From a virus, in IMG/VR virus record IMGVR_UViG_3300012665_000925, positions 1-64,000 of that record: 64,000 bases of DNA; one strand, 5' to 3'. A program made the position numbers and the translations under genes. Below are positions 11,671-37,067 of this stretch, in pieces; the first letter of the stretch is position 1, and the number at the start of each line of letters is the position of its first letter. The notes under the pieces were generated by a model. It made no database searches. It was not told where the DNA came from and saw only the letters and a list, made by a program, of their open reading frames with translations.

Positions 11671-13479
11671 TTGGGAATTTTCAAGCGTGAGCCTAATAAG
11701 CCGTCGCGTGCTCCGTCCACCAATGGTATTCGTGCTACCTCTCCTGGTGCACGCCCAGCTCAGCCCGCAGTTTGGCAAGACTCTTTTGGAATCGTTTATG
11801 CCAGCCCTGCCGCATTCTCCGAACCTCGCCCACTGACCGCTGCCGCGACTCAGATTAAGATTGGCGATGTCAGCGAAGCAAATCTCTTCAAGTCTCGTCG
11901 TCAGTCAGCTTCTTCAGCTTGGCAGCGCGAGGCGTGGGAGTATTACGACGCCATTGGAGAAATTAAATATGCGTTTAACCTCGTTGCTTCAGTTGTCTCG
12001 CGTATCCGACTCTATGCTGCAAGTATTGATGACCCAGCAGAGGCTCCTGTTACTGTACGTAAATCAGAGGTAGTCGACAAAGAGCTAGCTGCTGCTGCAG
12101 AACGTGCTCTAGACCGTCTAAGCTCAGCCTACGGAGGCCAGTCTGGTCTTCTAAAGGACACTGCCCTCAACTTGCAGGTTACTGGCGAGTGCTACCTAGT
12201 TCAAATCCCAGAGCGTATCGGTTCAGGACTTCCAGAGAGCTGGGACATCCGCTCAACTGACGAACTTCAGGTTGACGCCAAGGGTAACTACATTATTAAC
12301 CCGCGTCGTGAAGTATCTACTGGCGGCTCTTCAATGCTGTCTGGTGGTGCTGCAGATGTTATCCGCCTACCTAAGACTGCGTTCATCGGACGCATGTGGA
12401 AGGCTCACCCACGCTACTCACAGGAGTCTGACAGCTCGCTACGCGGCCTTTTGGACCTTTGTGCGGAACTACTACTTCTTAACCGCACCTTCCGTGCTAC
12501 AGCTCGCTCACGCCTCAACGCTGGTGCCTTGTATCTACCAGATGGTCTATCAACTGCAGCAATGCCAGACCCTGACTACCCTTATGACGAGAACGGCGAA
12601 TACAACCAGCAGTTCAACGCCGAGGAATCAGCTGACGACTTCGAAGACCAGCTCATCGACGCTATGACCACGCCTATTAAGGACGAAGACTCCGCGAGCG
12701 CCGTTGTACCTCTAATCATTCGTGGTCCAGCAGAGCTTGGCGACAAGATTAAGCAGTTCAAGTTCGAGCGTTCATTCGACCCTGCTCTAGCAGAGCGTTC
12801 AGAACGTGTCCTAGAGCGCATCATGCAGGGCCTAGACGTCCCTAAGGACATCGTTTCGGGTCTGGCTAACGTCAAGTACTCAAACGCCCTACAGATTGAC
12901 GAGAGCCTCTATAAGGCACACATCGAGCCGCTGATGCTTCTTATCTCTGACGCTCTAACTGTTGTCTACCTACGTCCTTACCTAATCTCTCTTGGCTACG
13001 CAGAAGCAGACGTAAACCGTCTTGTCATCTGGTACGACCCAAGCCAGATTGCAACTCGTAACGACCGTGCATCTGACGCAGACGCTGGCTTTGACAAGAT
13101 GGCCGTCAGCTACGACACATGGAGACGTGCTCACGGATTCTCAGACCAAGATGCACCTAGCCCAATGGAGCTAGCAATGCGTCTTATCATCAGCAAGGGT
13201 GCAATCACACCTGAGCTTACTGAAGCCATGCTTGGAGCAGTTGCTCCAGAGCTTATGGAAAAAGTTAAGGGCATTGCACAGGCTGATTCTGTTGCACCAG
13301 TTCCACCTGAGGTTCAGAACATCCTCAACGGAATGGGCGGCGGAGCTCCTGCAGCTGGAGGTGCTGCTGTACCTACTCCAGGCGCTGCACCTGCTCCTGC
13401 CCCGACCCCTGAAGCAGTACCACCAGGCCTAGCCGAACCAACCCCGACACCACCCGCCCCTGAAGCACCAACCGCATAG
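11671..13479 (+). CDS. Portal protein
   Basis: Position after terminase; WQREAWEYYDAIGE motif of actinophage portals; Pro/Ala-rich tail. Confidence 0.85.
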   Translation: MGIFKREPNKPSRAPSTNGIRATSPGARPAQPAVWQDSFGIVYASPAAFSEPRPLTAAATQIKIGDVSEANLFKSRRQSASSAWQREAWEYYDAIGEIKYAFNLVASVVSRIRLYAASIDDPAEAPVTVRKSEVVDKELAAAAERALDRLSSAYGGQSGLLKDTALNLQVTGECYLVQIPERIGSGLPESWDIRSTDELQVDAKGNYIINPRREVSTGGSSMLSGGAADVIRLPKTAFIGRMWKAHPRYSQESDSSLRGLLDLCAELLLLNRTFRATARSRLNAGALYLPDGLSTAAMPDPDYPYDENGEYNQQFNAEESADDFEDQLIDAMTTPIKDEDSASAVVPLIIRGPAELGDKIKQFKFERSFDPALAERSERVLERIMQGLDVPKDIVSGLANVKYSNALQIDESLYKAHIEPLMLLISDALTVVYLRPYLISLGYAEADVNRLVIWYDPSQIATRNDRASDADAGFDKMAVSYDTWRRAHGFSDQDAPSPMELAMRLIISKGAITPELTEAMLGAVAPELMEKVKGIAQADSVAPVPPEVQNILNGMGGGAPAAGGAAVPTPGAAPAPAPTPEAVPPGLAEPTPTPPAPEAPTA

Positions 13480-14702: not shown

Positions 14703-15860
14703 ATGACCGAGATTATCGAAACCACAGAAACGGTCGAAGCAACTGAGCTGCTGACCCGTAAAGAAGTATCTGCCATGATTGCTGCAGCCAACTCCGCGAT
14801 TGTTAGCCCAATCCGTAAGGTTCACGCAAGTCTAGTAGATGACGTCATCGAGCGTACTTACCTTGAGACCGATGGTCTTAATAAGAAGTCACGCAACTTT
14901 GCTATCCGCAAGGCTGTTGGCAACTACATCGACCTAGTAACTAAGGGACTCACTGCTAGCGCAGCTGACAACCACTTTGACCTACTAACTCCAGCACACC
15001 CTTACTCTTCTTCTGCTACAGCTTTGTCTGACAAAGAAGTTCGCGACCTTCGCGCTCAGTGGGTTGCAGCTGAGCCTGGTATCAAGAACGAGTACCGCCC
15101 AATCGTTGCTGCTGCTCTATCCCTAGACCCAGGTTCTATGGAAGCAGTTCACGCAGAGATTCGCGTTATGGCTCTGACTGCTGCTGGAGAGCTTCCTGCT
15201 CACTTGACTAGCTATGGTCCAGCAATCACTGCATCTGCTCTGGCTGACTTTGACTACGGCTCACTTCGTGAAGAAGAGTACCAAGAGACACGCGATGCGT
15301 TGTTCTCTCTAGTTGTAGAGCAGAAAGCTCTTACTGCTTCTGGTGCATTGGCTTACGATGTTGATGGTAGCCTTGCTCGTCGCATCTACCGTGGAGACTC
15401 TCGCAAGAGCATCATCTCTCACCTAGAGCGTAGCGCAGCATTCAACGCTGCTGTCGAGTCACTAGATGCAGACCTAACCTTTGCTGACCCATTCACCATT
15501 CAGGCACGCGAGCAGTTCTCACAGTTCTTCGATGCACTTACCGAACTTGCTGACTCACCACGAGTTATCGACCTTCGCGAGATTGCTGCTGACTCAGTTG
15601 CTAAGTATGACGAGACTGGCGAAATTGCTCAGGCAATCACCGCTGGTGCTGATTCCAAGTATGTTCTTGCAAAGCTTTCAGACGTAGCTGAGTGGAATGA
15701 TGACCTAGCTGACTTCAACCTTCTTTCTGAAGAGGAAGACCTAGAAGACGAGAAGTTCTCGGCATGGGCTCAGTTCAACAACATCTACGAGTCAGTTCTC
15801 GACATCGATGGTGAAATGTTTAACCACGTACCACTAAGAGTTGTAGTACCGTCCAAATAA
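14703..15860 (+). CDS. Head-module hypothetical protein with multiple [LI]TA[SAG] motifs
   Basis: 385 aa; GAAAGG RBS. Confidence 0.8.
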   Translation: MTEIIETTETVEATELLTRKEVSAMIAAANSAIVSPIRKVHASLVDDVIERTYLETDGLNKKSRNFAIRKAVGNYIDLVTKGLTASAADNHFDLLTPAHPYSSSATALSDKEVRDLRAQWVAAEPGIKNEYRPIVAAALSLDPGSMEAVHAEIRVMALTAAGELPAHLTSYGPAITASALADFDYGSLREEEYQETRDALFSLVVEQKALTASGALAYDVDGSLARRIYRGDSRKSIISHLERSAAFNAAVESLDADLTFADPFTIQAREQFSQFFDALTELADSPRVIDLREIAADSVAKYDETGEIAQAITAGADSKYVLAKLSDVAEWNDDLADFNLLSEEEDLEDEKFSAWAQFNNIYESVLDIDGEMFNHVPLRVVVPSK

Positions 15861-15942: not shown

Positions 15943-18900
15943 ATGTCTGATTATCTAGACAGCTTATACACCAAGCTAAACGCTATCATTGCCGCGGGAA
16001 TCGGTATTCCTAATGGCCCAGGTGCTAACGACTACTTCTGGATGATTCAGCCACGTGACCGCAGAGGTCAGTGGATTGAGATGGGTGCTGACTTCGAAGC
16101 TCTTATCGAACTTCCAGACGGCCGCACCATTAGCGTCATAGGTAAAGCTGTTGGTTCGAACGGTACCGAAGGTATGGTTCGTATGTTGGTCCGTGGGTAC
16201 GGAGACCAGGGTGTTCCAGACCAGATTCTAGGTATCGAATCTAAGAACGCACAGAAGGTTGCAGCTGTTCTACCTAAGGGCTACGCAAAGGGTAAAGGCG
16301 CTAAAGAAACAGACATCAACGGAAACACTATCTCTGGCCGTCGTGCTCAGAAGCTTGCCGAGATGGAAACAGCCGAGATTACCCCAGACGACATTCGTAT
16401 GGCAGAGCAGGGTCAGAACGCACCTGAGGCCAAGCTAGGTAAAGACTTCGAGAACTCTCCAGAAGGTCAGGCAATTGCAGAGCTTCCATCAGCTGCTGCA
16501 GAGGTTGCAACTCCTGAAGAAGTTGCAGACATGCTCGACGGTGCAAAAGACCCTAAAGATATGACTCTGAAAGAGCTATCTGACGAGATGAGTGCTCCAG
16601 TTAGCGATAGTGCTAGCATCGACCGTTACAACAACATCACTGAAGAATTTTATAACCGAGGTGGCTACTCTGCTCTCCGTAAGGAAGAGGGTACAACTCC
16701 AGAAGAAGCAATCGACGACGCTATTGCTAAAGCTGCAGACCAGGGCGGCGACATTGACCTAGACAATCTAATCATGGGTGCAGACTCAGAGAAGAAGGGT
16801 CGCAAGAAGAAGGACCCAGCTGAGGGTGGAAAAGCTCTACCTGACGTAGGCGATGACGATGAAGAGCCAGTTGTTCCTGTTGCAGACCTATTCGACCAGG
16901 GACCAGGCGCACAGTCAGACTTGACTGGAGCTCGTTCAGCTTCCTACGCAGTAACCCCCGAAGACATTGGTAAGGATGACATCATCCTTGGTCCTTTCGG
17001 TGACCCTGTAAAGATTACCGCCATGAACTGGGGTAACGAAGAAGATGGCGAAGACCCAGATGCCGTAACTATCGATTTCGTAGATGCTGCTGGCAACGAA
17101 GATTCTATGGACGTCAACCGCTACGACGACCTTACTCAGGTTGACCTAGAGCCTTCAACTCCTGCAGTTGCTGAAACTCCAGAGCCTGAAGTTGCAAAGC
17201 CAGCTAAGACTCCTAAGACTCCTAAAACTCCTAAGACTCCAGAGCCAATCTCTCCTGAAGACGCTACTCCAGTTGAAGAGCCAGAGAGGGTTGCACCTGA
17301 CAGTGCAACAGAAATCCCTTCTTCAGAAGTTGAGATTGGCGACACTTACTACACCAAGGGTGGAGCTAGGGAGATTGGTAAGGTTACTATGATTAGTAAC
17401 GACCCAAACAACCCTGGAAAGCGTATGGCACGCGTAACTCTAGACGGTAAAGACCGTGGATGGTGGCCACTAGGCGACAGCGCGATGATTGACAAGGGCG
17501 AGAAAGCTCCTGAAGCTCCTGCAGCTCCTGAAGTTCCTGAAACCCCTGCTACACCAGAGGTACCTGCAACTCCAGAGACTCCTGCAACTCCAGACAAGGT
17601 TGGCGGAACAGCCGAGCAGGCTGGTCAACTAATTGACCTAGATGATGCTGGTATTGATGACCAGGCTCTAGCCGACGAAGTATCTAAGGTTCTGAACTAC
17701 AAGGGTCCAATCAGCGAGCTAGATGGTGCTGACTTGGATGACCTAATCGCTCGTGTAAAGGCTAGCGTCTCAGACCAGCCAAAGATTGTGTCACCTGAAG
17801 AACCAGAGACTCCTGCTAAGCCTACGCCTGACACTGGCGAGCTTCCTGTAGAAGAGACTCCGCTAGACACTAGCGACCGTGTCGGCGACCCAGACGAGGC
17901 TGCACTGCCTTCTGAGTTTGACGTAGACAATGGCGAGCCTATTGCTATGGCTATGCCTGGCCCTGGTGGCCCTGGCAGCTTCAGCTTCGGCGATGGCGGT
18001 CCAAACGATATCCGTAATGCCAAGGTTGATGTTCTTCGTGACTCTAAGGGAAACATCATCTACGACGCTGACGAAGATGGTAACCCTATCCTCAAGGGTG
18101 GCAAAAAAGTCCCTCTTATGGACCCAGAGGCATTCAAGGCTCTTATTAAGAAGTTCTTCCCGAATGCAAAAATCACTGCAGACGGTCTAGGAATCAACAT
18201 TGCCCGCGAGTCTATCGATGGCAAGACCTTCGAGATGGGCCTAAAGCGTCTTGACAAGGGAACTCACGCTGTAACGTTATCTGTCACAGATGACGTAACT
18301 GGCGAGCGTACCGACTACATCGTTGCTGATGAGCGCAAGTCTTGGCAAGCAGTGTGGAACTTCCGCAAGGACGGTGGAGGTAACAGCCCATTCGCTATCT
18401 GGAACCTAATCACTGGAGCTCCTGGTGCTAAGGGTAAGTTTGGTAGCACTGACTACACCAAGAAGGGCTCTGCTCTAGAGCGTCTTCAGTATTGGAGAGT
18501 CCAGAAGAGCAACCTTCCTGGCGTACCTCGTCTTGCCACTATGGAAGAAATCTTCGAGGGTGCCGCTAATGGCCGCAAGCAGACACTCAACTTCTCTCTA
18601 CCTAAGAACCCTAAGACTGGTAGACAGTTCACCATGGACGAGTGGATGTCTCCAAACAACAAGGCAGTACGTGAGGCAAACGCCACATGGATGTCTCAGC
18701 GTGCTGGCGAGATTGGCTCTCTAAAGGATGCTATCGAAAAGGCTTTGGCTACGAGAGACTGGTCTGGCGCTTACTTCCTAATGTTGCAGCTTAAGGGCCG
18801 CTTCCCACAGGACCTAGACACACTAGCTAAGCTTCGTAACATGATGTACTCATACATCAGAACGAACCTACCTGGCGCAGACATGCGTAGGGTTTCTGGT

Positions 18901-19566
18901 GCTGTAAGCCGTCTATCTAACGTTGTTCGCGGCGGGTTGAAGAACTCTGCCAAGCTTGAAATCCCTTACATCTCTGCAGATGGCCACACCGAGGTTGTCG
19001 AAGGAATGTGGGTCAAGTACGAGAACATCCAGGGTGAGGTCTCAGTTGGTAAGGTTGTAAAGCGTCGTCCAAGTGATGACATTGCTCGACCTGTTCAGTC
19101 TCCAGACGGAGCTAGCTACCAGCACCACGACCAGGTAGTAGTTGAGTTTGCTGATGGCACTCAGGTAGACCAAATCACTGCAGCCAACTTGACAGTAGTC
19201 AAGAAGGGCGAGCCAGAGTACGAAAACGCTACTAGATACGTAGGCAAGCCTAAGAAGTCTAAGTGGATGGCAGAACGTGAAGAAGCAGTTGGCTTGGACA
19301 ACTACTTCAATGGAATCGACCTAGACGAGCTCAATGGCGAAGGCGAAGATGGCGGAGAGCCTTCTGGCCCGACTAAAGTTGACGACCTGACTCCTGGAAG
19401 TGGTTTCTACTCTAAGACTGGCGAGTTGCTAGGTCAAGTTGTAGACATTCAGCCAATCACTGCTAAGAATGGAAAAGCTGGTTTTGCTATCGCCTATGTC
19501 ACCCCTGAAGGTGAGACCAAGGTCGTTACGATTGCAGCTGGTGAACTCCGCGGCCCAAAAGCGTAG
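15943..19566 (+). CDS. Large head-associated protein (1207 aa); N-terminal half of a frameshift fusion
   Basis: AAGGA RBS; QPRDRRGQW motif; acidic Pro-rich linkers; ends at slippery CCCAAAA. Confidence 0.85.
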   Translation: MSDYLDSLYTKLNAIIAAGIGIPNGPGANDYFWMIQPRDRRGQWIEMGADFEALIELPDGRTISVIGKAVGSNGTEGMVRMLVRGYGDQGVPDQILGIESKNAQKVAAVLPKGYAKGKGAKETDINGNTISGRRAQKLAEMETAEITPDDIRMAEQGQNAPEAKLGKDFENSPEGQAIAELPSAAAEVATPEEVADMLDGAKDPKDMTLKELSDEMSAPVSDSASIDRYNNITEEFYNRGGYSALRKEEGTTPEEAIDDAIAKAADQGGDIDLDNLIMGADSEKKGRKKKDPAEGGKALPDVGDDDEEPVVPVADLFDQGPGAQSDLTGARSASYAVTPEDIGKDDIILGPFGDPVKITAMNWGNEEDGEDPDAVTIDFVDAAGNEDSMDVNRYDDLTQVDLEPSTPAVAETPEPEVAKPAKTPKTPKTPKTPEPISPEDATPVEEPERVAPDSATEIPSSEVEIGDTYYTKGGAREIGKVTMISNDPNNPGKRMARVTLDGKDRGWWPLGDSAMIDKGEKAPEAPAAPEVPETPATPEVPATPETPATPDKVGGTAEQAGQLIDLDDAGIDDQALADEVSKVLNYKGPISELDGADLDDLIARVKASVSDQPKIVSPEEPETPAKPTPDTGELPVEETPLDTSDRVGDPDEAALPSEFDVDNGEPIAMAMPGPGGPGSFSFGDGGPNDIRNAKVDVLRDSKGNIIYDADEDGNPILKGGKKVPLMDPEAFKALIKKFFPNAKITADGLGINIARESIDGKTFEMGLKRLDKGTHAVTLSVTDDVTGERTDYIVADERKSWQAVWNFRKDGGGNSPFAIWNLITGAPGAKGKFGSTDYTKKGSALERLQYWRVQKSNLPGVPRLATMEEIFEGAANGRKQTLNFSLPKNPKTGRQFTMDEWMSPNNKAVREANATWMSQRAGEIGSLKDAIEKALATRDWSGAYFLMLQLKGRFPQDLDTLAKLRNMMYSYIRTNLPGADMRRVSGAVSRLSNVVRGGLKNSAKLEIPYISADGHTEVVEGMWVKYENIQGEVSVGKVVKRRPSDDIARPVQSPDGASYQHHDQVVVEFADGTQVDQITAANLTVVKKGEPEYENATRYVGKPKKSKWMAEREEAVGLDNYFNGIDLDELNGEGEDGGEPSGPTKVDDLTPGSGFYSKTGELLGQVVDIQPITAKNGKAGFAIAYVTPEGETKVVTIAAGELRGPKA

Positions 19567-19613
19567 AGGCTTCTGACTCCACGCCTCAGGGACCTGAGGG
19601 GACTCCAGAAGCC
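19554..19613 (+). promoter_or_regulatory. Putative -1 programmed ribosomal frameshift signal
   Basis: C-CCA-AAA heptamer in frame; 7-nt spacer; hairpin GGCTTCTG...CCTCAG/CTGAGG...CAGAAGCC; open -1 frame. Confidence 0.75.
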
Positions 19614-22600
19614 GCGGCTAGTTCATTAGATGCGCTGGGAATTGATTTCCAGTCAGCAACTATGGACGCTAGCGGTACCCGACTTCCTACTCCTGGTGCT
19701 TTCACTGGTCGCTTCCAGAAAATTATGGAAGGCGCTAAGAACTGGAAAGATGTTGCTAAGCGTCTAAAGGGCGAGACTGTAACCTACTTCGACTTCGAGA
19801 CTACTGGTATCGCAGACTACGACGGTCAGAACATTACCAACGACCCAGTTCAGCTTGGTGCAGTTCAGGTTAAGAATGGCAAGATTGTAAAGCGTTTCAA
19901 CGTCTACATCAACCCAGAAAGCAAACTATCTGACTGGTCTGCCAATAACCTCAAGCGTGACGTTGTAGATGAAAATGGCGACAGAGTTCTCGACGAGAAT
20001 GGTCGCCCAGCGTCTACTCTGGTAACTCCTGACTGGCTTGAAGGTCAGATGTCTCAGAAGCAGGCTTTAGAAGACTTCATCGAATTCATGGGACCTGGTG
20101 CTCTAGTTGGTGGACAGAACGTTCCGTTTGATATGGAGCTTCTCAAGCGTATGGCCGACAAGTACGACGTCGACCTGGATATCGCTGGAACTATCGACTC
20201 TAAGGACCTTGCTTCACTTCTCCCTAAGTATGACCCTGAGAAGGGCATCGACGGACCGAAGGCTCCAGACCGCAAGACTGGCGAGATTAAAGCCACCTCT
20301 AGCCTCGGTCCTGTTGCAAACTTCCTAGGCTTCGAGCCTGCTAACTGGCACTCAGCTGATGGTGACGCTGAAGACTCATACAACCTAGTCTCTAAAATTA
20401 TTGAGCGTGCTGGTAGCGAAGGTAGCGAAGACCTAAGTCTTCTAGACTTCCCTGCAATGGCAAAGCGTTACAAAGAGCGTATGGCTGAGTTCAAGGCGGT
20501 TGTTGACCCTAGCAACCCAATTACCGAAGCTCAGACTGCTGCTCTTCAGAAGTTCTCCGAATCAGACGACCCTCTGGTTTCCGAGCTGGCTAAAGATGCA
20601 ATGTCTTCCGCCACTACTCGTGGTTCAGCCGCCGAAGCCCTTGCTAACATTCACGCTGCAGATGAGGATGACTCGTCACTAGGCCCTATCGGTGCTGACC
20701 CCCGTGAGTCGGATATATCTTGGAAAATGGAGGGTGACCCAGTCCTCAAGAGAGTTACATACACGGGCTCTAATGGATACGTAATTAAGCGCAAGGCATT
20801 TTTTGGTGTCAAAAAAGGCAAGGCATCTGGATACGCTTACACGATTGAAGACCCCGAGGGAAATCCAGTCCCTGACGGTAGACACACAACCCTAGCAAAA
20901 GCTAAAGAGCGCGTAGCTAAACTCTCCGAGACTAGCAGTGCCGTATCTCAAATCAACGCGGCTGAATCTGACCCAGACTTTGACGATGTAGAGCTACCAG
21001 AAGAGATTCAGTCGCTCATCATGCAGGCTGATGTAGATGACGAAGAGTCAGATTCAGACTTTGATGATGTAGACCTTTCTGACTTCCTAAGTAGAGTAAG
21101 CACCGCTAAAGTTCCAGCACCTAAGCCAGTCTCTAAGCCAGCCTCGGTCATTGGAGCCATTGGTCAAAAAGCCGCTGAGTTCGCCAAGAAACGCCGTTTG
21201 ACCATGCAGCGTAACGCTATCCCTGAGCTAGCTATTGATGTAGAAAATCTAAAAGAAGTTAGAATCCCTGGTGCTAAAGCAGGTAGAAAAGCATATGCTC
21301 CTTCTGCTGAGGCGACAGAAGTTAAAGACGAAATGGTTGCCTTAGGTCGAGAAGTTGTCGACCAGGCAGTAGAAGAGATTCTTCCTGAGCTAAAGGCCGA
21401 AGGCATAATTGATGAATCATTTGATAGCGTTGACGAGGCTCTAGCAGCGTTTGAAACACTCCATGACGCAGCTAACCAGGGGATTACTGACAATCAATCT
21501 AAGATGAAGCCTCTAATTACTGGACTCAGGTCGGAGCTCCTAGAGGAGGCTACGCCAGAGCAGTTTGACGCCCTTGCTCAGAACATTGTTGATTTGTTGA
21601 AGCTCGACATGAGTAAAGAAGATGCTTTGAAATTTATCAAATCTGGCGATGCGCTGAGTTTGGAAAAGCGTAGCACATACAACGCGTACTACGTGTCAGA
21701 AGAAAACAAACTTAGTGACGAACAGATTGAAAAAAATAAAGAGTATAACGAAAAGATAGAAGTTGCTAAAGAAGCGCTATCGGAGCTACTTGCAGAGGTA
21801 GTCTTTGAGACTACAGCAGGAGACTACAAACTAGCCAGCGACCCTTGGACGTTTACCCACCGAGCAGTATCTCTCCGAGAAGTTGCAGGTATCCTACTGC
21901 TTCAGAAGGATAAAGAGAGGCTTGCTCAAATCGAGGCAATTGCACAGAAGATGCAAGAATTTGAAGCTACTAGAAAGAGATTTAGCCCGAACTCGCTTTC
22001 CAAAGAAATTAACAAGCGTATTCGTGATAAAGCAATGAAGACTCTTAAGGAAAATGGATTCAAGTTTGACTCTGTTCCTTTGGACCAGTTTGAAGGTCTA
22101 TTAATTACTCCTGGTAGCAACCCTAGACCTATTACCGAGAAGACTCAGCTTGGGAAGATGTTGATTGAAGCTTTCCAGTATGTTCCTCGGAATGTTCTTC
22201 TTGCATCCATCGATAGGATGAAACTGGAGAAACGCAAGCTCACCATCAGACAAACTAGGATTGGTGTTCGTGCTCACTACCAAGATAAAGAAATGCTAAT
22301 CCGTGCAGACACTACTGACTCTCTATTGCACGAGTTCTGGCATTTTATTCAGTCTGGAAATAAAAATATTCGTGCCCTAGAACACGCATGGTTATTCGGC
22401 AGAATGGCAGATGAAAATGGAGAACTACCTGGTCTAACCGCTACTGGAAGCTCTAGTAATGAGCAGGCTTTTGCAGTAAACGGACTAGTCTCTACTTACA
22501 CATCTAAACAGTATGCAGACATGCGTAGCGGAGGGGCCTTCTTCCACCCAAAGAATGCTTTTACCGAAGTGTCAACGACTCTGATGCAGGACTTGTTCAC

Positions 22601-22844
22601 CTCTGTCGGCGAGTATTCTGAGCCAAACGGAAGAACAGTAAAGACTGGTAGAGGCCCAAGCAGTAGAGTCTACAGAAATGCTTACTATGATGAAGCAACT
22701 GGCGTCTGGTATGCTGACAGTACCAAGCAAGAAAGAATCCAACCTAGAATTGTCTATGGTCGTGACAAGTCGCAGGGCATTGACTATGACTTCAAGGCTT
22801 TTGGATTCGGACTACTTATGGCACTACACGACTGGGAGGCATAA
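19560..22844 (+). CDS. DEDDh (DnaQ-like) 3'-5' exonuclease plus HEXXH zincin-like domain protein; -1 frame extension of the upstream ORF
   Basis: FDFETTG (ExoI), GQNVPFD (ExoII), HSADGD (ExoIII), LLHEFWH; frame open from 19560; no RBS at ATG 19662. Confidence 0.8.
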   Translation, partial: SVEASDSTPQGPEGTPEAAASSLDALGIDFQSATMDASGTRLPTPGAFTGRFQKIMEGAKNWKDVAKRLKGETVTYFDFETTGIADYDGQNITNDPVQLGAVQVKNGKIVKRFNVYINPESKLSDWSANNLKRDVVDENGDRVLDENGRPASTLVTPDWLEGQMSQKQALEDFIEFMGPGALVGGQNVPFDMELLKRMADKYDVDLDIAGTIDSKDLASLLPKYDPEKGIDGPKAPDRKTGEIKATSSLGPVANFLGFEPANWHSADGDAEDSYNLVSKIIERAGSEGSEDLSLLDFPAMAKRYKERMAEFKAVVDPSNPITEAQTAALQKFSESDDPLVSELAKDAMSSATTRGSAAEALANIHAADEDDSSLGPIGADPRESDISWKMEGDPVLKRVTYTGSNGYVIKRKAFFGVKKGKASGYAYTIEDPEGNPVPDGRHTTLAKAKERVAKLSETSSAVSQINAAESDPDFDDVELPEEIQSLIMQADVDDEESDSDFDDVDLSDFLSRVSTAKVPAPKPVSKPASVIGAIGQKAAEFAKKRRLTMQRNAIPELAIDVENLKEVRIPGAKAGRKAYAPSAEATEVKDEMVALGREVVDQAVEEILPELKAEGIIDESFDSVDEALAAFETLHDAANQGITDNQSKMKPLITGLRSELLEEATPEQFDALAQNIVDLLKLDMSKEDALKFIKSGDALSLEKRSTYNAYYVSEENKLSDEQIEKNKEYNEKIEVAKEALSELLAEVVFETTAGDYKLASDPWTFTHRAVSLREVAGILLLQKDKERLAQIEAIAQKMQEFEATRKRFSPNSLSKEINKRIRDKAMKTLKENGFKFDSVPLDQFEGLLITPGSNPRPITEKTQLGKMLIEAFQYVPRNVLLASIDRMKLEKRKLTIRQTRIGVRAHYQDKEMLIRADTTDSLLHEFWHFIQSGNKNIRALEHAWLFGRMADENGELPGLTATGSSSNEQAFAVNGLVSTYTSKQYADMRSGGAFFHPKNAFTEVSTTLMQDLFTSVGEYSEPNGRTVKTGRGPSSRVYRNAYYDEATGVWYADSTKQERIQPRIVYGRDKSQGIDYDFKAFGFGLLMALHDWEA

Positions 22845-23740: not shown

Positions 23741-26700
23741 ATGGTAGAATTCATTGGTCGTAACGGAAACTTAGCATTATTTAGTAATGATGCTGAGGCA
23801 GTTGTCATCAACACAGACCTCAACCTTGTTGTAGGTGTCGGAGACCACGCTGCGCTGTCTAGTGCACGAGTCTGGGAGCCTACTGAAGAGACTTTCTCTA
23901 ACTCAGTGGTGGAGCTTGCATCTGGTGCTGTCACTACCCTAGACATAAATGTTATAACTGCCTCTGCCCGTATGTACACCATCCCAGATGGTGCTAAGGC
24001 TGAAGCCAAGAAAGCCCTAGAGTGGCGTAAAGAAGAGAAGCGTGGCGGAACTCCTGTAGGTCTGAACACTGCTCGCACTCTTGCTAAGGGTGGACAAATA
24101 GGTATTGAAAAAGTACGCCACATTGCAAAGTACTTTGCCCGTCACGAAGTTGACAAAAAGGGCAAGGGCTACAAGCCTGGAGATGACGGCTTTCCGAGCA
24201 ACGGACGAATCGCGTGGGCCTTGTGGGGCGGAGACACCGCTTGGCGTTGGGCTAAGGCAATCGTTGAGCGCGAAAACAAGAAAGCTGTTACCGCTGGTGG
24301 ATACGCTCTACCTGGGTACAGAGACAACATAGAAACATACAAGACTTCAGACTCCTATGATTCTGAACTAGATGCTTTTAAGTCTGCTCACACCCTTGAC
24401 CCAGAGTACGGCCCTGAATTTATGGCTCGCGTTCGCATGGACGGCTCTGGCGTTGACCGACTTTACAAAGTAGACTTTGACGGCACCGTTGCTGTTTGGG
24501 ACGGTATGGGCTGGGACACACTTGGTCACGTTGATGGCGACATTTGGACTTACGACAATGCTCTTGATGACCCGTATGACCACTGCGAAAAAGACCACTT
24601 TGTTATTGACCCAGAATCAGCTGTCTACATTTCAGCTCGTATGCAGCAGGACCCGTTTGGTCGCGTCTCGATTGAAGAGATGGACCCAGATGAGGCTAAC
24701 CTATTCTCTGAGGCTGCCGCTGGCGAAGACTGGGACCTAGTTGACTACGCTGTAGCAGCTTCTGGTGCTCTAGTAGCATTCATCGGTGCCGAGACTGGTA
24801 AGGGTCCTAAGCCTGCTGGTGCAACCAAAGCTGGAGATGGCAAGTACACTACAGCCGAGCGTTCAAACATTGCTAAGGGTGCTCCACGTGACGCCACTGG
24901 CCAGTTTGCTAAGACTGGTGGTCGTGCTGTAGTTGGTAACGACACTGCTAACGGAGCTGGAACCATTGTTGGTAGAAGTGCTTCAACTCCAGGAAATATT
25001 CTTTTCAAGTCAGATAAGACTGGCGAAACTGTTGACATCCCAGCTAAGTTCACCACTCCTGAAGACAAGGTAGCCCCTCCAGCTCCTGCTGTTGATTATG
25101 GTGCCCCTCTAGATGTTTCTGGAATCCTTGGAGAGCCTCGTGCGCCTCAGGGGCAGACGGTGCAGCTCCCTGGAACTATGGAGCCAATTACTTCTCAAGA
25201 CCTAGGTCAGATGCTCGGCGACTGGGACACATACGTTCAGGAAGCTCGTGACTCTTTCACTGGCAAGGCTACAGACGATGAAGTTCGTCAGTACGCTAAA
25301 GACACTAACCAGAAGATTCGTGAAGTCCCTACTGTTGTCGAAGGCAAAGCTACATCTATTAAAGATGGAAAGTTTGTTGTCGAGTCTATTCCAGACCCAG
25401 TAATCACTGACGACGCTAACCCAGACAATGCTACTGCTCCTGGAATGATTAAGGCTCAGGCTCTAAGAAAACCTATCCTATTTGAAGAGCCTGCAACTCC
25501 TCCAACTCCTAACGAGCAGCTTCGTGGTGTTAAGAACGCTGAGCGTTCAGCTGACTCTGCTAAGGCAAAGGCTGCCACTGCTGCTCAGGAAAAACTACGT
25601 AAAGCAAAGAACGCTGACCGCCAAGCTGAGAAAGCTCCAGTTGGCCAGTCTGAGAAGCTACGCAATGTAAAGAACGCCGAACGCTCTGCTGATTCAGCAA
25701 AAGCAAAGGAAGCAGCTAAGGCTCAGGAGCGTCTACGCCAAGCCAAGAATGCAGACCGAGCCGCGGAGAAGACTCCAGTAGGTCAGTCTGAAAAACTTCG
25801 TCAGGTAAAGAACGCTGAGCGTTCAGCAGACAGCAAGAAGATTAAGGCAGAAGCGGATGCTCGCGAACGTCTACGTCAGGCTAAGAACGCTGACCGTCAG
25901 GCAGAAAAGACTCCTCTAGGTCCAAATGAAAAACTACGTCAGGTTAAAAACGCCGAGCGTAGTGCAGACTCTAAGAAAATCAAAGCCGAAGCAGATGCAC
26001 GTGAAAGACTACGTCAAGCCAAGAATGCCGAGCGTGCTACTCCTAAGCCTGGGCTAGACCGTACAGAGCGTATGAAGCCTAAGCCAGATGCTCAGAGTGG
26101 TAAGTATGTAGTTAAGAAGGGTGATAGCCTCTGGTCTATTGCCGAGAAGAACAAGCCTAAGGGCTCTTCGACTGCCGAGTACTGGGCCAAGGTAATGAAG
26201 GCTAACCCTAAGGGTAACTTCAAGTCTGGCAACCCAAGCTTGATTTACTCTGGTGAAAAGGTAAACCTACCTGGCTACAATGCACCTTCTGCCCCTAAGA
26301 TGACTCCAGCGCAGAAGCGCAATGCTGATGCTAAGCAGTATGGTCAAGGTATTCTTGCTGGCAAGGCTAAAGCAAAGGCTGAGAGCGACAAGCGTAATGC
26401 AGATGCTAAGGCATACGGCGAAGGTAAACTAGCTGGAATTGCTAAGGATAAGGCTCAGAAATCAGCTAAGGCAAATGCCGATGCCAAGGAATATGGCGAA
26501 GGTAAACTAGCTGGCATTGCTAAAGCCAAAGCCGAGAGTGCTAAGCGCAACGCTGATGCTAAGGAAATTGGCGAAGCTAAGAAAGCTGGCATTGCCAAGG
26601 GCGAAGCTCAGAAGTCTGCAAAAGCAAACGCTGATGCTAAGGAAGTTGGCACTGCCAAACTAGACGCCGCCGCTAAAGTCAAGGCCGACAACGCTAAGCG

Positions 26701-27016
26701 TAATGCTGATGCTAAGCAGGTTGGTCAGGCTAAGCAAGCTGGTGTCGCTAAAGACAAGGCTCAGAAGTCTGCCAAGGTAAATGCTGATGCTAAAGAGGTA
26801 GGCGAGGCTAAAAAAGCTTCCCAAGCTAAGGAAACTCCTAAGCCTTTCTTTACTCCAATAAAACCAGCAACCCCTAAGTCTCTACTTAAGCCACTACCTG
26901 CAAAACAGCCACAGAAGGATGCTGTTAAGGATGCACTAGATGGTCTGAAAGACCGTACTGCTTACAAGCAGGAGATTTTCAAACGAGGCAAGGCTGGGGC
27001 TAGGAAACGCAAATAG
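23741..27016 (+). CDS. Multidomain head-module protein with LysM domain and Lys/Ala-rich tandem repeats
   Basis: IAWALWGG head-morphogenesis-like domain; APRDATGQF; LysM YVVKKGDSLWSIA...LIYSGEKVNLP. Confidence 0.85.
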   Translation: MVEFIGRNGNLALFSNDAEAVVINTDLNLVVGVGDHAALSSARVWEPTEETFSNSVVELASGAVTTLDINVITASARMYTIPDGAKAEAKKALEWRKEEKRGGTPVGLNTARTLAKGGQIGIEKVRHIAKYFARHEVDKKGKGYKPGDDGFPSNGRIAWALWGGDTAWRWAKAIVERENKKAVTAGGYALPGYRDNIETYKTSDSYDSELDAFKSAHTLDPEYGPEFMARVRMDGSGVDRLYKVDFDGTVAVWDGMGWDTLGHVDGDIWTYDNALDDPYDHCEKDHFVIDPESAVYISARMQQDPFGRVSIEEMDPDEANLFSEAAAGEDWDLVDYAVAASGALVAFIGAETGKGPKPAGATKAGDGKYTTAERSNIAKGAPRDATGQFAKTGGRAVVGNDTANGAGTIVGRSASTPGNILFKSDKTGETVDIPAKFTTPEDKVAPPAPAVDYGAPLDVSGILGEPRAPQGQTVQLPGTMEPITSQDLGQMLGDWDTYVQEARDSFTGKATDDEVRQYAKDTNQKIREVPTVVEGKATSIKDGKFVVESIPDPVITDDANPDNATAPGMIKAQALRKPILFEEPATPPTPNEQLRGVKNAERSADSAKAKAATAAQEKLRKAKNADRQAEKAPVGQSEKLRNVKNAERSADSAKAKEAAKAQERLRQAKNADRAAEKTPVGQSEKLRQVKNAERSADSKKIKAEADARERLRQAKNADRQAEKTPLGPNEKLRQVKNAERSADSKKIKAEADARERLRQAKNAERATPKPGLDRTERMKPKPDAQSGKYVVKKGDSLWSIAEKNKPKGSSTAEYWAKVMKANPKGNFKSGNPSLIYSGEKVNLPGYNAPSAPKMTPAQKRNADAKQYGQGILAGKAKAKAESDKRNADAKAYGEGKLAGIAKDKAQKSAKANADAKEYGEGKLAGIAKAKAESAKRNADAKEIGEAKKAGIAKGEAQKSAKANADAKEVGTAKLDAAAKVKADNAKRNADAKQVGQAKQAGVAKDKAQKSAKVNADAKEVGEAKKASQAKETPKPFFTPIKPATPKSLLKPLPAKQPQKDAVKDALDGLKDRTAYKQEIFKRGKAGARKRK

Positions 27017-27073
27017 CCTTCCCAGAGCCAAAGTATACTAATAGTAGCGTTTTTATTTAGAAAAGGTAGTAAA

Positions 27074-30000
27074 TTGGCAGAAGAAACTAAGCCTGTACCA
27101 GCAGCAGCTCCCGTAGCTGCGCCTGCTGCAACGCCAGTCGACCCTACCAACTCTGACGTACCTCCAGTTTACCTAGCTATCGTCTCTCCTGACGACCCTA
27201 ATGCTGTTATGTCAGTGGTTGCTCTGGTTCCAGAGGACACACAGTCGACCGCCCCTATGACTTTCAAGCGAGAGAAAGGTGTCTGGACCAAAGATGAGCA
27301 GATTCTACGCGACCTTAAGTCCGCGACTCCACCACCTGTTGTACCTCTTGACGCTTCTGTTCTAAATAACGTACTTCAGCAGGTAGACAAGACCAGCCCA
27401 GCAGTTACCGCATCGGGACTTATTCCGCTATTTGACCTCAGGGACATATTTAAGGTTGACTATGTCAGCCCATTCGATGCTTTGGTAGCTTCTGTAATGT
27501 CTGGCAACTCTGACTTCGATGTTCTAGCAGATGAAGATGACTATTTTTCTCTACTCTCTAATGAAGAGTACGCAATGCTTGAAGCAGAAGGTCTTCTAGA
27601 AGACTTCTCTACGCAGACTGGTGTAACCGAGCACGCAGCCGAGGACCCTTGCTGGGATGGCTACAAGCAAATAGGTTTCAAGGACAAGAATGGGAAGCAC
27701 GTTCCTAACTGCGTAAAAGCAAATAACAGCATGACCGCCGCTGGTGGCGCAGACCGCAACCGTGGCAACGCCGAGAAGCTACGCCGCTACTGGACCAGGG
27801 GCAAGGGTGCTGCAAAGATTCGTTGGGGCACTCCTGGCGACTGGACTCGTTGCGTCCGTCAACTTTCAAAGTACATGGGCGTTCGCGCGAAGGGCTACTG
27901 CCAACTTCGCCACAAGGAAGTAACTGGTATCTACACTGGTGACCGAAACAACCCTGGCAATGACAACGCATTCTCTGAGAAAGTAATCGAGCGTGCATTC
28001 CTAACGGCAGAAGCCAACAAGGCTCGTGCTCGTATGTCTATGGTTGCTGCCGCGGAGTCTACTGCTATGGGTTCTGCATTCACTATCCCGCTAGTTCTCC
28101 CTGAGGAAGTCGAGTCTGGAGACGGACGTAGCTTCAAGCCAGGCGTTGTCGAGATTCGTGATTTGCCTCTACCACTTATGTGGCAGTACAAAACTGGCGA
28201 TGGACATTCTGGCTCGGTTGTAGTCGGACGTATCGACGGCATGGAGCGTGTAGAGGGTGGGATTGGAAATGCTTATGGAGTATTTGACAATGGCCCTCAC
28301 GGTCGTGAAGCAGAGCGTCTTATCCGTAATGGATTCCTTCGTGGCGTATCTGCAGACCTTGACCAGTTCGAGGCAAAAGAGAGCAAGCCTGAAGCTGGAA
28401 TGGAAGACAGCAAAGACGAAGAAATGGGTAAAACCAAACTAAGCATTAGCCATGCACGAATCATGGCCGTAACCATCGTACCTAAGCCAGCTTTCCAGGA
28501 GTGCGTAATCACCCTGGAAAACGCTGAACCACAGGAGGAAGAAATGTCCCCAGAAGACGGCGTCTATGAAGAGTCAGTCGATGTACAGCCAGAGATGGCA
28601 ATAACTGCATCTGGCTTCTTGTCATCGCCAATCCCAGTAGTACCACCTACAGACTGGTTCAAAGACCCTGGCCTTGACAAGCCAACCCCACTTACTATCA
28701 CAGACGACGGTCGTGTCTATGGTCACGTTGCTGCATGGCACGTAAACCACATCGGACTACCTAACAACACCAAGCCACCTCGCTCACGCAGCAAGTACGC
28801 ATACTTCCACACTGGCGTTGTACGCACAGATGCTGGTAAGGATGTTCCAGTTGGTCAGCTTACTCTTGCTGGCGGACACGCTTCACTACACGCAAGCGCA
28901 GCTGCAGCCGCTAAGCACTACGATGACACTGCATCTGCAATCGCTGACGTACACGCTGGCGAAGACAAGCACGGCATCTGGGTAGCTGGTTCACTACGCC
29001 CAGAAGCAACCGAGGCTCAGATTCGCTCACTACGTGCTTCTGCACCTTCAGGTGACTGGCGTCCAGTAGGCGGAGCACTCGAGCTTGTCGCTGTATGTCA
29101 GGTAAACGTTCCTGGTTTCCCAATCGCTCGTGCTCTTATGGCTTCTGGCTCAGTTGTTGCTCTTGTAGCTGCTGGTGCATTTGAAATGGCTATGCTCCGT
29201 AACGATGTCGCTGGTCGACTATCCGCTAAGGCTGAAGCACTAGGTGCTCTAAGCGCAAGCGTTGAGACCATGAGCATTCGCGAGCGCATCGAAGCTAAGC
29301 GAATTGACGCTGAGTTTGGTTACATCTCCCGCGATGAGCGTGAAAAGCTAGCTGAGAAGGGTGAGGCCATGAAAGACGGCTCTTTCCCAATCCGCAATGT
29401 TGACGACCTGAAGAACGCTATCTCTTCTTACGGACGTTCAAAAGAATCAGAGCGTGCGGCCGTTCGTCGTCACATCTCGAAGCGTGCGAACGCTCTCAAG
29501 GTTCGTCACATGATTCCTGAAGAGTGGAAGAGCCTATCTTCTAAAGAAGCAGAGTTCGCAGTAAGCGACCTACGCTCGCGTATCTCAGCAATTACTGCTG
29601 GTGTTCCAGCTCCTATCGAAGTTAGCGACACTGACATTCAGAAGCTAGCAGATGCTAAGCGTGCTGCTGACATCGAACAAGAACAGATTGCTGCTGAAAT
29701 CGAAGCTCGTAAGTCTGGCGAAGAAACTGTAGTAGACAAGATTGACCCTGAGACTGGTCTAACTAAGTTCATTCCTGGTAAGACTCAGCCTCGCGATGCT
29801 GGAGGCAAGTTCCGTAAGGTTCTTGCTCGCCTAAAGCAGGACCTCGGTGTTGCTGGTCTCCAGGAAGCATTGAAGCAGGTAGAGGACACAGAGAACCTAG
29901 AGTTCGCTGGTAACTACACTCAGGCTGCAAAGTCTGCAGATGCCTTGCTTAATACCATTGACCGTCTCAACACAGGTGCTCTAGACGCAACTAAGCTTGA

Positions 30001-30274
30001 GAACGTAAGAACTACCGCTGGAGAACTTGGAAAAGTGATTGCCAACCTACCGTTGCCATTCAACAACCAGGCCCAGAAGGTAAAATTTTCTGACCTTCCT
30101 CCTGCATTGAAGAAACTCATGGATGACATGATTACTCGTGTAGAAGCGAAGATTGGTAAAAAGGACGCTGGTGCTGCAACCGCAGAACTTAAGTCCTACA
30201 TGTCGGGTGCAGACCTATATAGCCAATCCGAGATTTCATCTCGTATGGCTACACTGCTCCGACTCCTTACCTAA
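27074..30274 (+). CDS. Capsid maturation (prohead) protease, multidomain fusion
   Basis: LPLPLMWQ..GHSGSVVVGRID..LRGVSADLD..VTIVPKPAF HK97-type protease motifs; extra PCWDGY..VPNCV, LRRYW..IRWGTPGDWTRC and DGSFPIRNVDDLKNAI domains. Confidence 0.85.
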   Translation: MAEETKPVPAAAPVAAPAATPVDPTNSDVPPVYLAIVSPDDPNAVMSVVALVPEDTQSTAPMTFKREKGVWTKDEQILRDLKSATPPPVVPLDASVLNNVLQQVDKTSPAVTASGLIPLFDLRDIFKVDYVSPFDALVASVMSGNSDFDVLADEDDYFSLLSNEEYAMLEAEGLLEDFSTQTGVTEHAAEDPCWDGYKQIGFKDKNGKHVPNCVKANNSMTAAGGADRNRGNAEKLRRYWTRGKGAAKIRWGTPGDWTRCVRQLSKYMGVRAKGYCQLRHKEVTGIYTGDRNNPGNDNAFSEKVIERAFLTAEANKARARMSMVAAAESTAMGSAFTIPLVLPEEVESGDGRSFKPGVVEIRDLPLPLMWQYKTGDGHSGSVVVGRIDGMERVEGGIGNAYGVFDNGPHGREAERLIRNGFLRGVSADLDQFEAKESKPEAGMEDSKDEEMGKTKLSISHARIMAVTIVPKPAFQECVITLENAEPQEEEMSPEDGVYEESVDVQPEMAITASGFLSSPIPVVPPTDWFKDPGLDKPTPLTITDDGRVYGHVAAWHVNHIGLPNNTKPPRSRSKYAYFHTGVVRTDAGKDVPVGQLTLAGGHASLHASAAAAAKHYDDTASAIADVHAGEDKHGIWVAGSLRPEATEAQIRSLRASAPSGDWRPVGGALELVAVCQVNVPGFPIARALMASGSVVALVAAGAFEMAMLRNDVAGRLSAKAEALGALSASVETMSIRERIEAKRIDAEFGYISRDEREKLAEKGEAMKDGSFPIRNVDDLKNAISSYGRSKESERAAVRRHISKRANALKVRHMIPEEWKSLSSKEAEFAVSDLRSRISAITAGVPAPIEVSDTDIQKLADAKRAADIEQEQIAAEIEARKSGEETVVDKIDPETGLTKFIPGKTQPRDAGGKFRKVLARLKQDLGVAGLQEALKQVEDTENLEFAGNYTQAAKSADALLNTIDRLNTGALDATKLENVRTTAGELGKVIANLPLPFNNQAQKVKFSDLPPALKKLMDDMITRVEAKIGKKDAGAATAELKSYMSGADLYSQSEISSRMATLLRLLT

Positions 30275-36725: not shown

Positions 36726-37067
36726 ATGGCAAGATTTAAAGATTTTGGTAAGGGTAAAGAAGACAACACTATTTCTTCAGACCCAATCAAGTTTGCACTA
36801 CACGGTCAGGAATTCGACTGCCACCCACGACTACAGGGTAAGACCCTACTACAGTTCGTTGAACTAGCTAACTCTGAAGACGCTGGCTCATCAGCTAAGG
36901 TTACTCGCGTTTTCTTTGAGAAAGTAATGGACGCTGAGAACTACAAGCGTTTCGATGCACTTCTTGAGCACCCAGACACAATCGTGACCGTTGAGTCACT
37001 TGGAGAAATCATTGGCTGGCTAATCGAGGAGTACAGCGGCCGCCCAAATCAGCAGCCAGAGGCTTAA
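36726..37067 (+). CDS. Tail assembly chaperone (G)
   Basis: Upstream of the tape measure gene; ends with slippery C-CCA-AAT at 37043-37049. Confidence 0.85.
   Translation: MARFKDFGKGKEDNTISSDPIKFALHGQEFDCHPRLQGKTLLQFVELANSEDAGSSAKVTRVFFEKVMDAENYKRFDALLEHPDTIVTVESLGEIIGWLIEEYSGRPNQQPEA

Follow-up and report, generated by a model that had tools for sequence, protein, structure and literature searches.

The locus described here raises the question of whether two long open reading frames (ORFs), lying end to end and in different frames within the head-gene region of a virus, are separate genes or the two halves of a single giant protein. The locus is found in a stretch of DNA 64,000 nucleotides (nt) in length (positions 1 to 64,000 of IMG/VR virus record IMGVR_UViG_3300012665_000925, hereafter 'the window'), in which the upstream frame, ORF1 (15943 to 19566, + strand), encodes a product of 1207 amino acids (aa) with linkers rich in P, T and E between conserved blocks, and the downstream frame, ORF2, if read from its ATG at 19662 to its end at 22844 (+ strand), would encode a product of 1060 aa. 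The structure of the junction between them, and its conservation among related loci, indicate that the two frames are very probably joined by a programmed -1 ribosomal frameshift cassette, in which a standard tandem slip would connect ORF1 to the block of coding sequence in the -1 frame.

Structure of the junction

The 3' end of ORF1 reads ctc cgc ggc cca aaa gcg TAG, with the 0-frame stop at 19564-19566, and contains a slippery heptamer, C_CCA_AAA (19554-19560, + strand), positioned in the X_XXY_YYZ register with ORF1, such that a P-site tRNA could move from CCA to CCC and an A-site tRNA from AAA to AAA. The -1 frame opens just after a TGA and remains open from 19545 to 22844 (1099 codons, stop to stop), and therefore coincides with the open 0 frame across 22 nt only (19545-19566, + strand). 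Because that overlap holds the heptamer, it is the sole place at which a ribosome can change frame without meeting a stop. The heptamer is followed on the + strand by a 7-nt spacer (GCGUAGA, 19561-19567), which takes in GCG, the final sense codon, and the 0-frame TAG, and then by a two-part, putatively stimulatory hairpin (19568-19613). In the minimum free energy fold of 19561-19620, this hairpin consists of an outer stem of 8 base pairs (bp) (GGCUUCUG/CAGAAGCC, 19568-19575 with 19606-19613) and an inner stem of 6 bp (CCUCAG/CUGAGG), with a folding energy of -26.5 kcal/mol and a z-score of -1.8 (8 of 200 shuffles as good) for that 60-nt segment. The possibility that the hairpin is a terminator or a member of a known RNA family was dropped, with no terminator-like sites and no Rfam matches being found there; a weak promoter-like match (9/12) at 19442-19470 is of a kind expected by chance.

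In-frame X_XXY_YYZ heptamers occur at 36 of the 14,267 codon positions in the 31 + strand ORFs examined (0.25%), corresponding to a chance expectation of approximately 0.02 heptamers in a 7-codon overlap. Of those 36, only two stand ahead of a long open -1 frame (1094 codons in one case and 137 in the other, with the rest at 44 or fewer), and both share the sequence CCCAAAN.

The -1 reading across the site is PKSVEASDSTPQGPEGTPEAAASS. Downstream of the slip, the -1 frame comprises 1094 codons and a stop (19560-22844, + strand); joined to ORF1 codons 1-1206, these would yield a long form of 2300 aa, stop-free in both segments, with a predicted junction peptide of ...ELRGPK/SVEASDSTPQGPEG.... 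The earliest ATG, GTG or TTG in the -1 frame is the ATG at 19662, and no AGGA- or GGAGG-like Shine-Dalgarno sequence is found at -20 to -4 of that codon, nor before a further ATG at 19725. In comparison, Shine-Dalgarno-like motifs precede 17 of the 31 + strand ORFs, among them ORF1 and the genes for the major capsid protein, the major tail protein and the tape measure protein.

A preliminary description of the window, made from its letters and a list of its ORFs, had outlined much of this arrangement. The end of ORF1, the in-register heptamer and the hairpin beginning 7 nt beyond it all proved correct, both in sequence and when folded; the -1 frame reads as claimed into the 1060-aa ORF, whose ATG was rightly said to lack a ribosome-binding site. 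The same account placed the junction in the head module, which agrees with the portal gene on one side and the major capsid gene on the other, and pointed to a GCCCAAA core in common with the slip site of the tail assembly chaperone genes, which is indeed present (37042-37048, with C_CCA_AAT in register at 37043).

Conservation of the slip site in related loci

A search of 5.8 billion proteins identified 24 homologues of ORF2 (596-1834 aa), encoded on contigs of up to 133 kilobases (kb). The corresponding loci of relatives (n = 36, comprising 26 viral and 10 metagenome loci) were fetched by means of the exonuclease domain of the -1 block alone, and nothing about the junction was therefore pre-selected. 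Profile scans of metagenome and genome contigs with a 2-sequence alignment returned no loci; the 10 metagenome loci were obtained with a 22-sequence alignment searched against metagenome contigs.

The layout of the window is found in 7 of the 36 loci (L002, L003, L004, L014, L028, L030 and L037), which are here termed split loci. In each of these seven, an upstream ORF of 1142-1452 aa ends at an in-register CCCAAAA, a TAG follows after 0-1 codon, the exonuclease is encoded in the -1 frame, and the two frames overlap by 16-37 nt. Since the junctions of L004 and L028 are identical, and those of L014 and L030 almost identical, these represent five distinct junctions in addition to that of the window. 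The heptamer is unchanged in all eight split loci, the window included, and in a DNA alignment of five sequences its seven positions are all invariant, as compared with a mean column identity of 55%. The codon that precedes CCA is GGC, TCC or GCC (Gly, Ser or Ala), with a third base that is always C, and the last residues of the upstream protein vary accordingly among the split loci (GPKA, SPKA, APKA, GPKG and GPK). The presence of an invariant heptamer and preceding C amid diverged flanks points to a pattern required by tRNA re-pairing, rather than by the protein sequence. A stop in the -1 frame lies 1-8 codons ahead of the heptamer in the split loci. The 0-frame stop that follows the heptamer is TAG in 8 of 8 loci, never TAA or TGA, and directly abuts the heptamer in L014 and L030.

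Hairpins were found at spacers of 5-8 nt in all five of the distinct junctions that were folded, with sequences that differ by lineage; the sixth junction, that of L037, entered the comparison by way of the alignment rather than by folding. The hairpin of L002 has an energy of -31.8 kcal/mol (z-score -4.3), that of L003 a z-score of -2.5, and that of L004 a 17-bp stem (z-score -3.0). In a comparison of the window with L002 and L037, the outer stem does not vary, and one pair of the inner stem displays a compensatory change from A-U to G-C. A possible cascade of further frameshifts at the end of the L003 -1 ORF was considered and dropped, as that ORF terminates at an ordinary stop with a separate gene beyond it.

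Coding sequence ahead of any start codon

Additional evidence comes from sequence that is conserved as protein and lies between the slip site and the first available start codon. In L001 and L002, the -1 frame holds an extra module of approximately 100 residues between the slip site and the exonuclease; residues 30-130 of that frame match an internal module of the homologue P0003 (70% over 106 aa, E-value 4e-46). The first ATG, GTG or TTG in these loci is found at residue 89 of the -1 frame, and the first 59 residues of the module precede it. Residue 16 of the -1 frame marks the position of a linker motif, PxPDA[DE], in both L003 and L004, the first ATG following 136 codons (L003) or 188 codons (L004) later. 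In the window itself, a conserved peptide, SSLDALGIDFQSAT, is followed by the Met encoded by ATG 19662 (19620-19664, + strand), and 13 conserved residues lie ahead of that ATG. The corresponding motif, S[LI]xxLGID[FL]QxATMD, is present with its Met at an internal position in 15 of 23 distinct aligned rows, including single giant ORFs, in which that Met lies inside the motif and therefore cannot be a start.

In many relatives, the two halves are encoded without interruption. A single ORF headed by the N-terminal domain of ORF1 also contains the exonuclease in 16 other loci, where it measures 3273 to more than 4700 aa within the sequence available, and likewise in the protein P0022; the exonuclease of the 29 non-split loci always lies within a long ORF (three of which reach a contig edge). 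The two halves form one polypeptide in these relatives, and there is no independent start for the -1 frame. Together with the conservation described above, in 7 of 36 loci and five distinct junctions in addition to the window, this comparison strongly supports the proposal of the preliminary description that a -1 frameshift generates a fusion of about 2,300 aa (2300 aa as predicted here). Its further suggestion that the C-terminal enzyme block is swappable fits the data, in that blocks of 840-1638 codons with different modules stand behind the same site.

The PxPDA[DE] motif recurs (as KPAPDADE, IEPDAEG and APSPDAEG) at module borders of both the upstream and the -1 ORFs of L003 (1093-10361) and L004 (1969-10802), and is also found in homologues P0006-P0009 and P0015; the two ORFs of the window contain no matches to it. 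It is a candidate site of processing or recognition.

In public databases, the genes called for the -1 ORFs begin at arbitrary internal ATG or TTG codons (19725 in the window, giving the record P0001; 8178 in L002, 5496 in L003 and 6075 in L004). In L001 and L002 the call begins inside the conserved module of approximately 100 aa, and in some cases a TTG inside a domain has been used. Because of such arbitrary internal starts, the database proteins are N-terminally truncated and the fusions are invisible in them.

Alternative explanations

That ORF2 is a separate gene, starting at ATG 19662 or 19725, with the heptamer and hairpin being incidental or serving as modulators of coupling, is a reading that agrees with several database entries: the public call for ORF2 begins MEGAKNWK at 19725 (P0001, 1039 aa), and homologues P0003, P0004, P0011, P0013 and P0017 are recorded with a Met start at MDASG or MDANG, as are P0005 and P0014 a few residues earlier. 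We nevertheless consider it very unlikely, because neither ATG in the window is preceded by a Shine-Dalgarno-like motif, the 13 conserved residues precede 19662 and its Met is internal in the giant single ORFs, the first start codon of L001 and L002 would halve a conserved module, and the first ATG of L004 lies 549 nt beyond the stop. The separate-gene reading also leaves unexplained both the invariant, in-register heptamer and the hairpins conserved in position.

Two other readings account differently for the change of frame. An indel of assembly or sequencing within the AAAA run, in what would then be one plain gene for a 2300-aa protein, is suggested by the location of the break in a short homopolymer and by the plain giant fusions of distant relatives; it is extremely improbable given that the same break, with exactly four A's, recurs in seven loci of other assemblies (five distinct junctions), and that a 151-nt contig (X1) from a public run of another sample covers 19455-19587, and therefore crosses the site, with no gaps. 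(Other matching contigs from sequencing runs cover parts of the window only, among them an RNA run, X13, that covers only 20085-20200; the RNA runs found shared few words with the window and did not reach the slip site.) The placement of a 0-frame stop 0-1 codon after the heptamer, and of a -1-frame stop 1-8 codons before it, is furthermore the layout of a recoding site rather than of an error. A frame change by transcriptional slippage (an added A) or by termination and reinitiation, in place of a tandem slip of tRNAs, has a comparably slight chance of being correct: an A-run is present, but its four A's are far fewer than the runs known to cause slippage by polymerase (such as the A9 run of Thermus dnaX, which reportedly does so), and the conserved X_XXY_YYZ register and preceding third-position C matter for tRNA re-pairing alone. 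Reinitiation, for its part, needs a nearby start codon, and none is found for 96-549 nt.

Several observations also weigh against a programmed frameshift as proposed. The hairpin of the window beats shuffled sequences only modestly (the z-score of -1.8 for 60 nt becomes -1.1 for 80 nt), and that of L014, with a 6-bp GC stem, is not better than shuffles (z-score -0.6). C_CCA_AAA does not, to our knowledge, rank with the best-characterised heptamers of Escherichia coli. No sequencing run containing the window was found, the best share of words being 0.17. Homologues P0008, P0010, P0016 and P0018, which were recovered as proteins only, start with a Met far ahead of the exonuclease and could, in their phages, be genes that initiate on their own. 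The split loci are mutually related, and the six junctions are therefore not six independent inventions. In a tree of the exonuclease (37 sequences, 24 of them unique, with only identical duplicates left out) the split loci cluster, with none of 500 label shuffles giving as low a number of changes, yet two changes of the 'split' label are needed, because L005, a giant-ORF locus, is sister to L004.

Proposed mechanism

The cassette itself, and its conservation, are a matter of observation: an in-register heptamer, a long open -1 frame, a downstream hairpin, and conservation of the site beyond that needed by the protein are all present, as for known -1 frameshift sites. In the mechanism that would follow from this arrangement, the hairpin would pause the ribosome while its P site holds CCA and its A site AAA, whereupon tRNA-Pro and tRNA-Lys would re-pair on CCC AAA and decoding would resume at AGC GUA GAG. 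Ribosomes that do not slip would add one more residue and stop at TAG, giving the 1207-aa short form, while those that slip would read 1094 further codons, giving the 2300-aa long form with its DEDD exonuclease and zincin-like metallopeptidase. Both forms would carry the N-terminal domain of ORF1, which may bring the giant proteins into the capsid, such that a single carrier gene would supply a population of molecules of which a fraction bear enzymes, in the manner of Gag and Gag-Pol. A low ratio of long to short form is plausible by likeness to lambda G/GT and Gag-Pol. The position of the gene, and the literature on related giant genes (PMC7302621), suggest that these products may be packaged in the head and delivered into the host.

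An internal comparator for this mechanism is provided by the tail assembly chaperone pair of the same genome (36726-37067, + strand, with the -1 frame open to 37462), which immediately precedes the tape measure gene (37485-41216, + strand, identified by phrog tape-measure matches). Its slip site, C_CCA_AAT (37043-37049, + strand), is in register with the ORF at 36726-37067, and is followed by 137 open codons in the -1 frame and by a hairpin after a spacer of 2-6 nt (-23.4 kcal/mol, z-score -1.2). No PHROG family was found for either part of the pair at an E-value of 0.01 or below; the syntenic gene of the Actinomycetia phage DSL-LC01 is annotated as a tail assembly chaperone. The overlapping 0 and -1 ORFs, slippery heptamer and adjacent tape measure gene reproduce the layout of the lambda G/GT type. 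The same CCCAAAN core is predicted to serve at a site for which textbooks would lead one to expect a -1 slip.

Domains of the predicted fusion protein

The first 200 or so residues of ORF1 form a conserved N-terminal domain (15943-16602, + strand) with invariant residues Q36, R38, G42 and M47, and a domain of this type heads every upstream ORF of the split loci. An AlphaFold2 model of it contains a small beta-barrel (aa 40-105) at a mean predicted local distance difference test score (pLDDT) of 59, and a Foldseek search with the model returned nothing at an E-value of 0.001 or below, and weak look-alikes among small barrels above it; given the low confidence of the model and the lack of a significant fold match, no function is drawn for the domain. 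ORF1 had no matches in Pfam, PHROGs or a PDB sequence profile search, and neither a usable match nor a model in the ESM Atlas. A peptide of the form QPRDxxGx[WF] is found in three large head-module proteins of the window (16048-16074, 24881-24907 and 29786-29812). The copy in ORF1 falls within the invariant core of the N-terminal domain (Q36, R38 and G42), and the other two align weakly to the profile of the domain (hhalign E-values of 0.017 and 0.025, probability 2-3%).

The -1 block begins with a DEDD (DnaQ/RNase T-like) 3'-5' exonuclease (19755-20486, + strand; PF00929, E-value 2.4e-11; phrog_192, E-value 1.8e-17, aa 32-275 of the 1060-aa ORF) and ends with a zincin-like metallopeptidase domain (22074-22841, + strand), which contains HEFWH at approximately 22329-22343 and a conserved Glu downstream. 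In the latter, H160, E161, H164 and E177 are invariant in eight sequences. The model of the domain (pLDDT 70) found zincin peptidases as its top matches with VIA-align (Z 9.0, with 154 residues aligned at a root-mean-square deviation of 4.0, followed by Z 7.5 and 7.3), and nothing significant with Foldseek (all E-values above 0.1); the assignment as zincin-like is made because of the VIA-align matches and the invariant HExxH/Glu motif. An acidic motif, ESDxDFDD(V/A)D..., is repeated at least once between modules in most of the homologues P0001-P0024, an example in the window being EESDSDFDDVDLSDF.

In relatives, the -1 blocks are 840-1638 codons long and contain differing sets of modules behind the same slip site, including the extra module of approximately 100 aa, PF03496 ADP-ribosyltransferase domains, and three types of HExxH peptidase. 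The ~100-aa module, characterised by 'YRGVP...GDWVT', has no Pfam match; a label for it as an ADP-ribosyltransferase-like polyvalent domain was considered and dropped, having no tested support. The combination of a DEDD exonuclease and a zincin-like peptidase in the long form suggests a head cargo protein of the polyvalent type.

Genomic setting

The junction lies between the portal and major capsid genes, in a head module among late and virion genes. The large terminase (9602-10987; Pfam Terminase_6N, E-value 2.2e-20) is followed by the portal (11671-13479; phrog_776, E-value 1.4e-104), three small ORFs, and then ORF1 and ORF2, beyond which two further proteins of approximately 1,070-1,090 aa (ORFs of 1091 aa and 1066 aa, 23741-30274) precede the major capsid protein (30403-32367; phrog_777, E-value 1.4e-79). 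Beyond the capsid gene are encoded the major tail protein, an adaptor, the pair of tail chaperones and the tape measure protein. The public protein record for ORF2 (P0001) derives from a contig of 127,623 bp, and the source is an uncultured phage of about 128 kb that probably infects freshwater actinobacteria.

The closest named phage is DSL-LC01 (OQ999401.1), which was assembled from a metagenome of lake origin (PMC10611076); its terminase is 72.6% identical and its late genes are syntenic. The INPHARED phage collection gave no DNA matches to the window by blastn and no tblastn matches to ORF2, and named relatives were reached by the terminase only. In DSL-LC01, the exonuclease block is absent (no tblastn match). 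Its ORF1-type N-terminal domain is found on a separate post-portal coding sequence (CDS) of 466 aa annotated 'cytoplasmic protein' (OQ999401.1 50168-51568; L038 7169-8569), and the N-terminus of its giant 3289-aa CDS resembles a 385-aa ORF of the window (14703-15860), a placement which indicates that carrier domains are shuffled among these genes. The 1091-aa and 1066-aa ORFs of the window (23741-30274) correspond to three adjacent CDSs of DSL-LC01 (OQ999401.1 63803-68722; L038 20804-25723), each annotated 'capsid maturation protease'. The 1066-aa ORF spans two of those three, as seen in tblastn matches in different frames of L038, and gene fusion and splitting therefore vary in neighbouring head genes as well.

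Comparison with known systems

The mechanism proposed here is already known, and is canonical in phage structural genes. In the -1 frameshift that generates the gpG and gpGT tail assembly chaperones of lambda (Xu, Hendrix and Duda 2004, cited in PMC7302621), a slip at an X_XXY_YYZ sequence near the end of a structural gene similarly produces a short and a C-terminally extended form; however, the extension there is approximately 140 aa, and the products are chaperones encoded beside the tape measure gene, whereas here 1094 aa of enzymes would be appended in a gene located between portal and capsid. A minor, longer component of the virion likewise arises from a frameshift at the extreme end of a head gene in T7 and T3 (gene 10A/10B), the Lactobacillus phage A2 (gp5A/gp5B), and the Listeria phages A118 and A500 (PMC5009743). 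Those extensions are small, often immunoglobulin-like decorations on the major capsid protein, in contrast to a multi-enzyme block on a giant protein that is not the capsid protein. The site of phage A2 is reportedly also C_CCA_AAA, with a stem-loop after it.

In retroviruses and retrotransposons, a -1 frameshift makes Gag-Pol from Gag, so that a minority of ribosomes add the enzymes. As in that system, the carrier described here ends just after the slip site, and the N-terminal part common to both forms would bring them into the particle. The differences are that a tailed phage with double-stranded DNA and bacterial ribosomes are involved, that the carrier is not a capsid protein, and that packaging and stoichiometry are proposed here by inference. 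The X_XXY_YYZ rule itself is of retroviral origin (PMC5009743).

The predicted fusion protein also resembles the polyvalent proteins described by Iyer et al. in 2017 from phages and conjugative elements, in which a zincin metallopeptidase (MPTase) serves as a hub domain and which are encoded among late or virion genes (PMC5512222). Both are large multidomain proteins that combine a zincin-like MPTase with nucleic acid enzymes and ADP-ribosyltransferases, and the fusion has at least two enzyme domains, a zincin-like domain with HExxH and a downstream Glu, and a late/virion gene position. The structural match reported for the MPTase of Iyer et al. is to the same peptidase family that tops the VIA-align results here (PMC5512222). 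The polyvalent proteins are described in that paper as single ORFs, as opposed to a polypeptide split over two frames, and the term 'frameshift' is absent from the body of the paper.

Giant genes at an equivalent position have been described in other phages of actinobacteria, including the 13-kbp genes of Microbacterium cluster EK and Burro, and MuF-VIP2 fusions; those of the Microbacterium phages are considered 'likely processed, and virion associated' (PMC7302621). Those genes and the 3289-aa CDS of DSL-LC01 share with ORF1 and ORF2 a location after the portal gene and before the protease and capsid genes, as well as a host phylum, and differ in being single ORFs annotated without recoding. 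The authors of PRFect have noted that 'false positives' of their method among MuF-like and VIP2 ADP-ribosyltransferase genes might be real frameshifts, since the parts are fused elsewhere (PMC10885494). The same fused-elsewhere argument is used here; in the passage concerned, it takes the form of a one-sentence suggestion, given without sites, conservation or structures. A search of the literature, with supplements and most subscription journals outside its scope, yielded no report of a frameshift within a gene for a polyvalent or giant head cargo protein, the nearest being the PRFect suggestion. The apparent novelty lies in the gene affected and in the size of the addition, with a conserved slip that would attach an enzyme block of 840-1638 residues to a giant carrier encoded in the head module.

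Implications

An immediate consequence concerns annotation. Gene callers divide the giant protein and assign its latter part a false start (in P0001, 60 codons beyond the slip), with the consequence that the giant cargo proteins of phages are systematically mis-annotated in metagenomes. With respect to function, the frameshifts known in phage structural genes add small decoration or chaperone domains, whereas the slip described here would add more than 1000 residues of enzymes. The system would represent a counterpart of Gag-Pol in double-stranded DNA phages, and would offer a handle on the amount of anti-host enzyme per virion. The presence of different payloads behind the same site, together with relatives in which the protein is encoded as a single ORF, furnishes a natural series in which to follow the origin of a recoding site and the swapping of effector modules.

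A broader reading, which we offer tentatively and with doubt slightly outweighing conviction, is that this lineage of lake actinophages loads its capsids by means of a recoding switch in the style of Gag and Gag-Pol. The N-terminal domain would act as the ticket for entry into the capsid, the C_CCA_AAA slip would set the number of copies that bear an enzyme payload (exonuclease, peptidase and ADP-ribosyltransferases), and the slip site would serve as a fixed docking point at which recombining payload modules are exchanged while the carrier is left untouched. If this capsid-loading switch exists, the single-ORF giants and the frameshifted pairs would be interconvertible solutions to one dosing problem.

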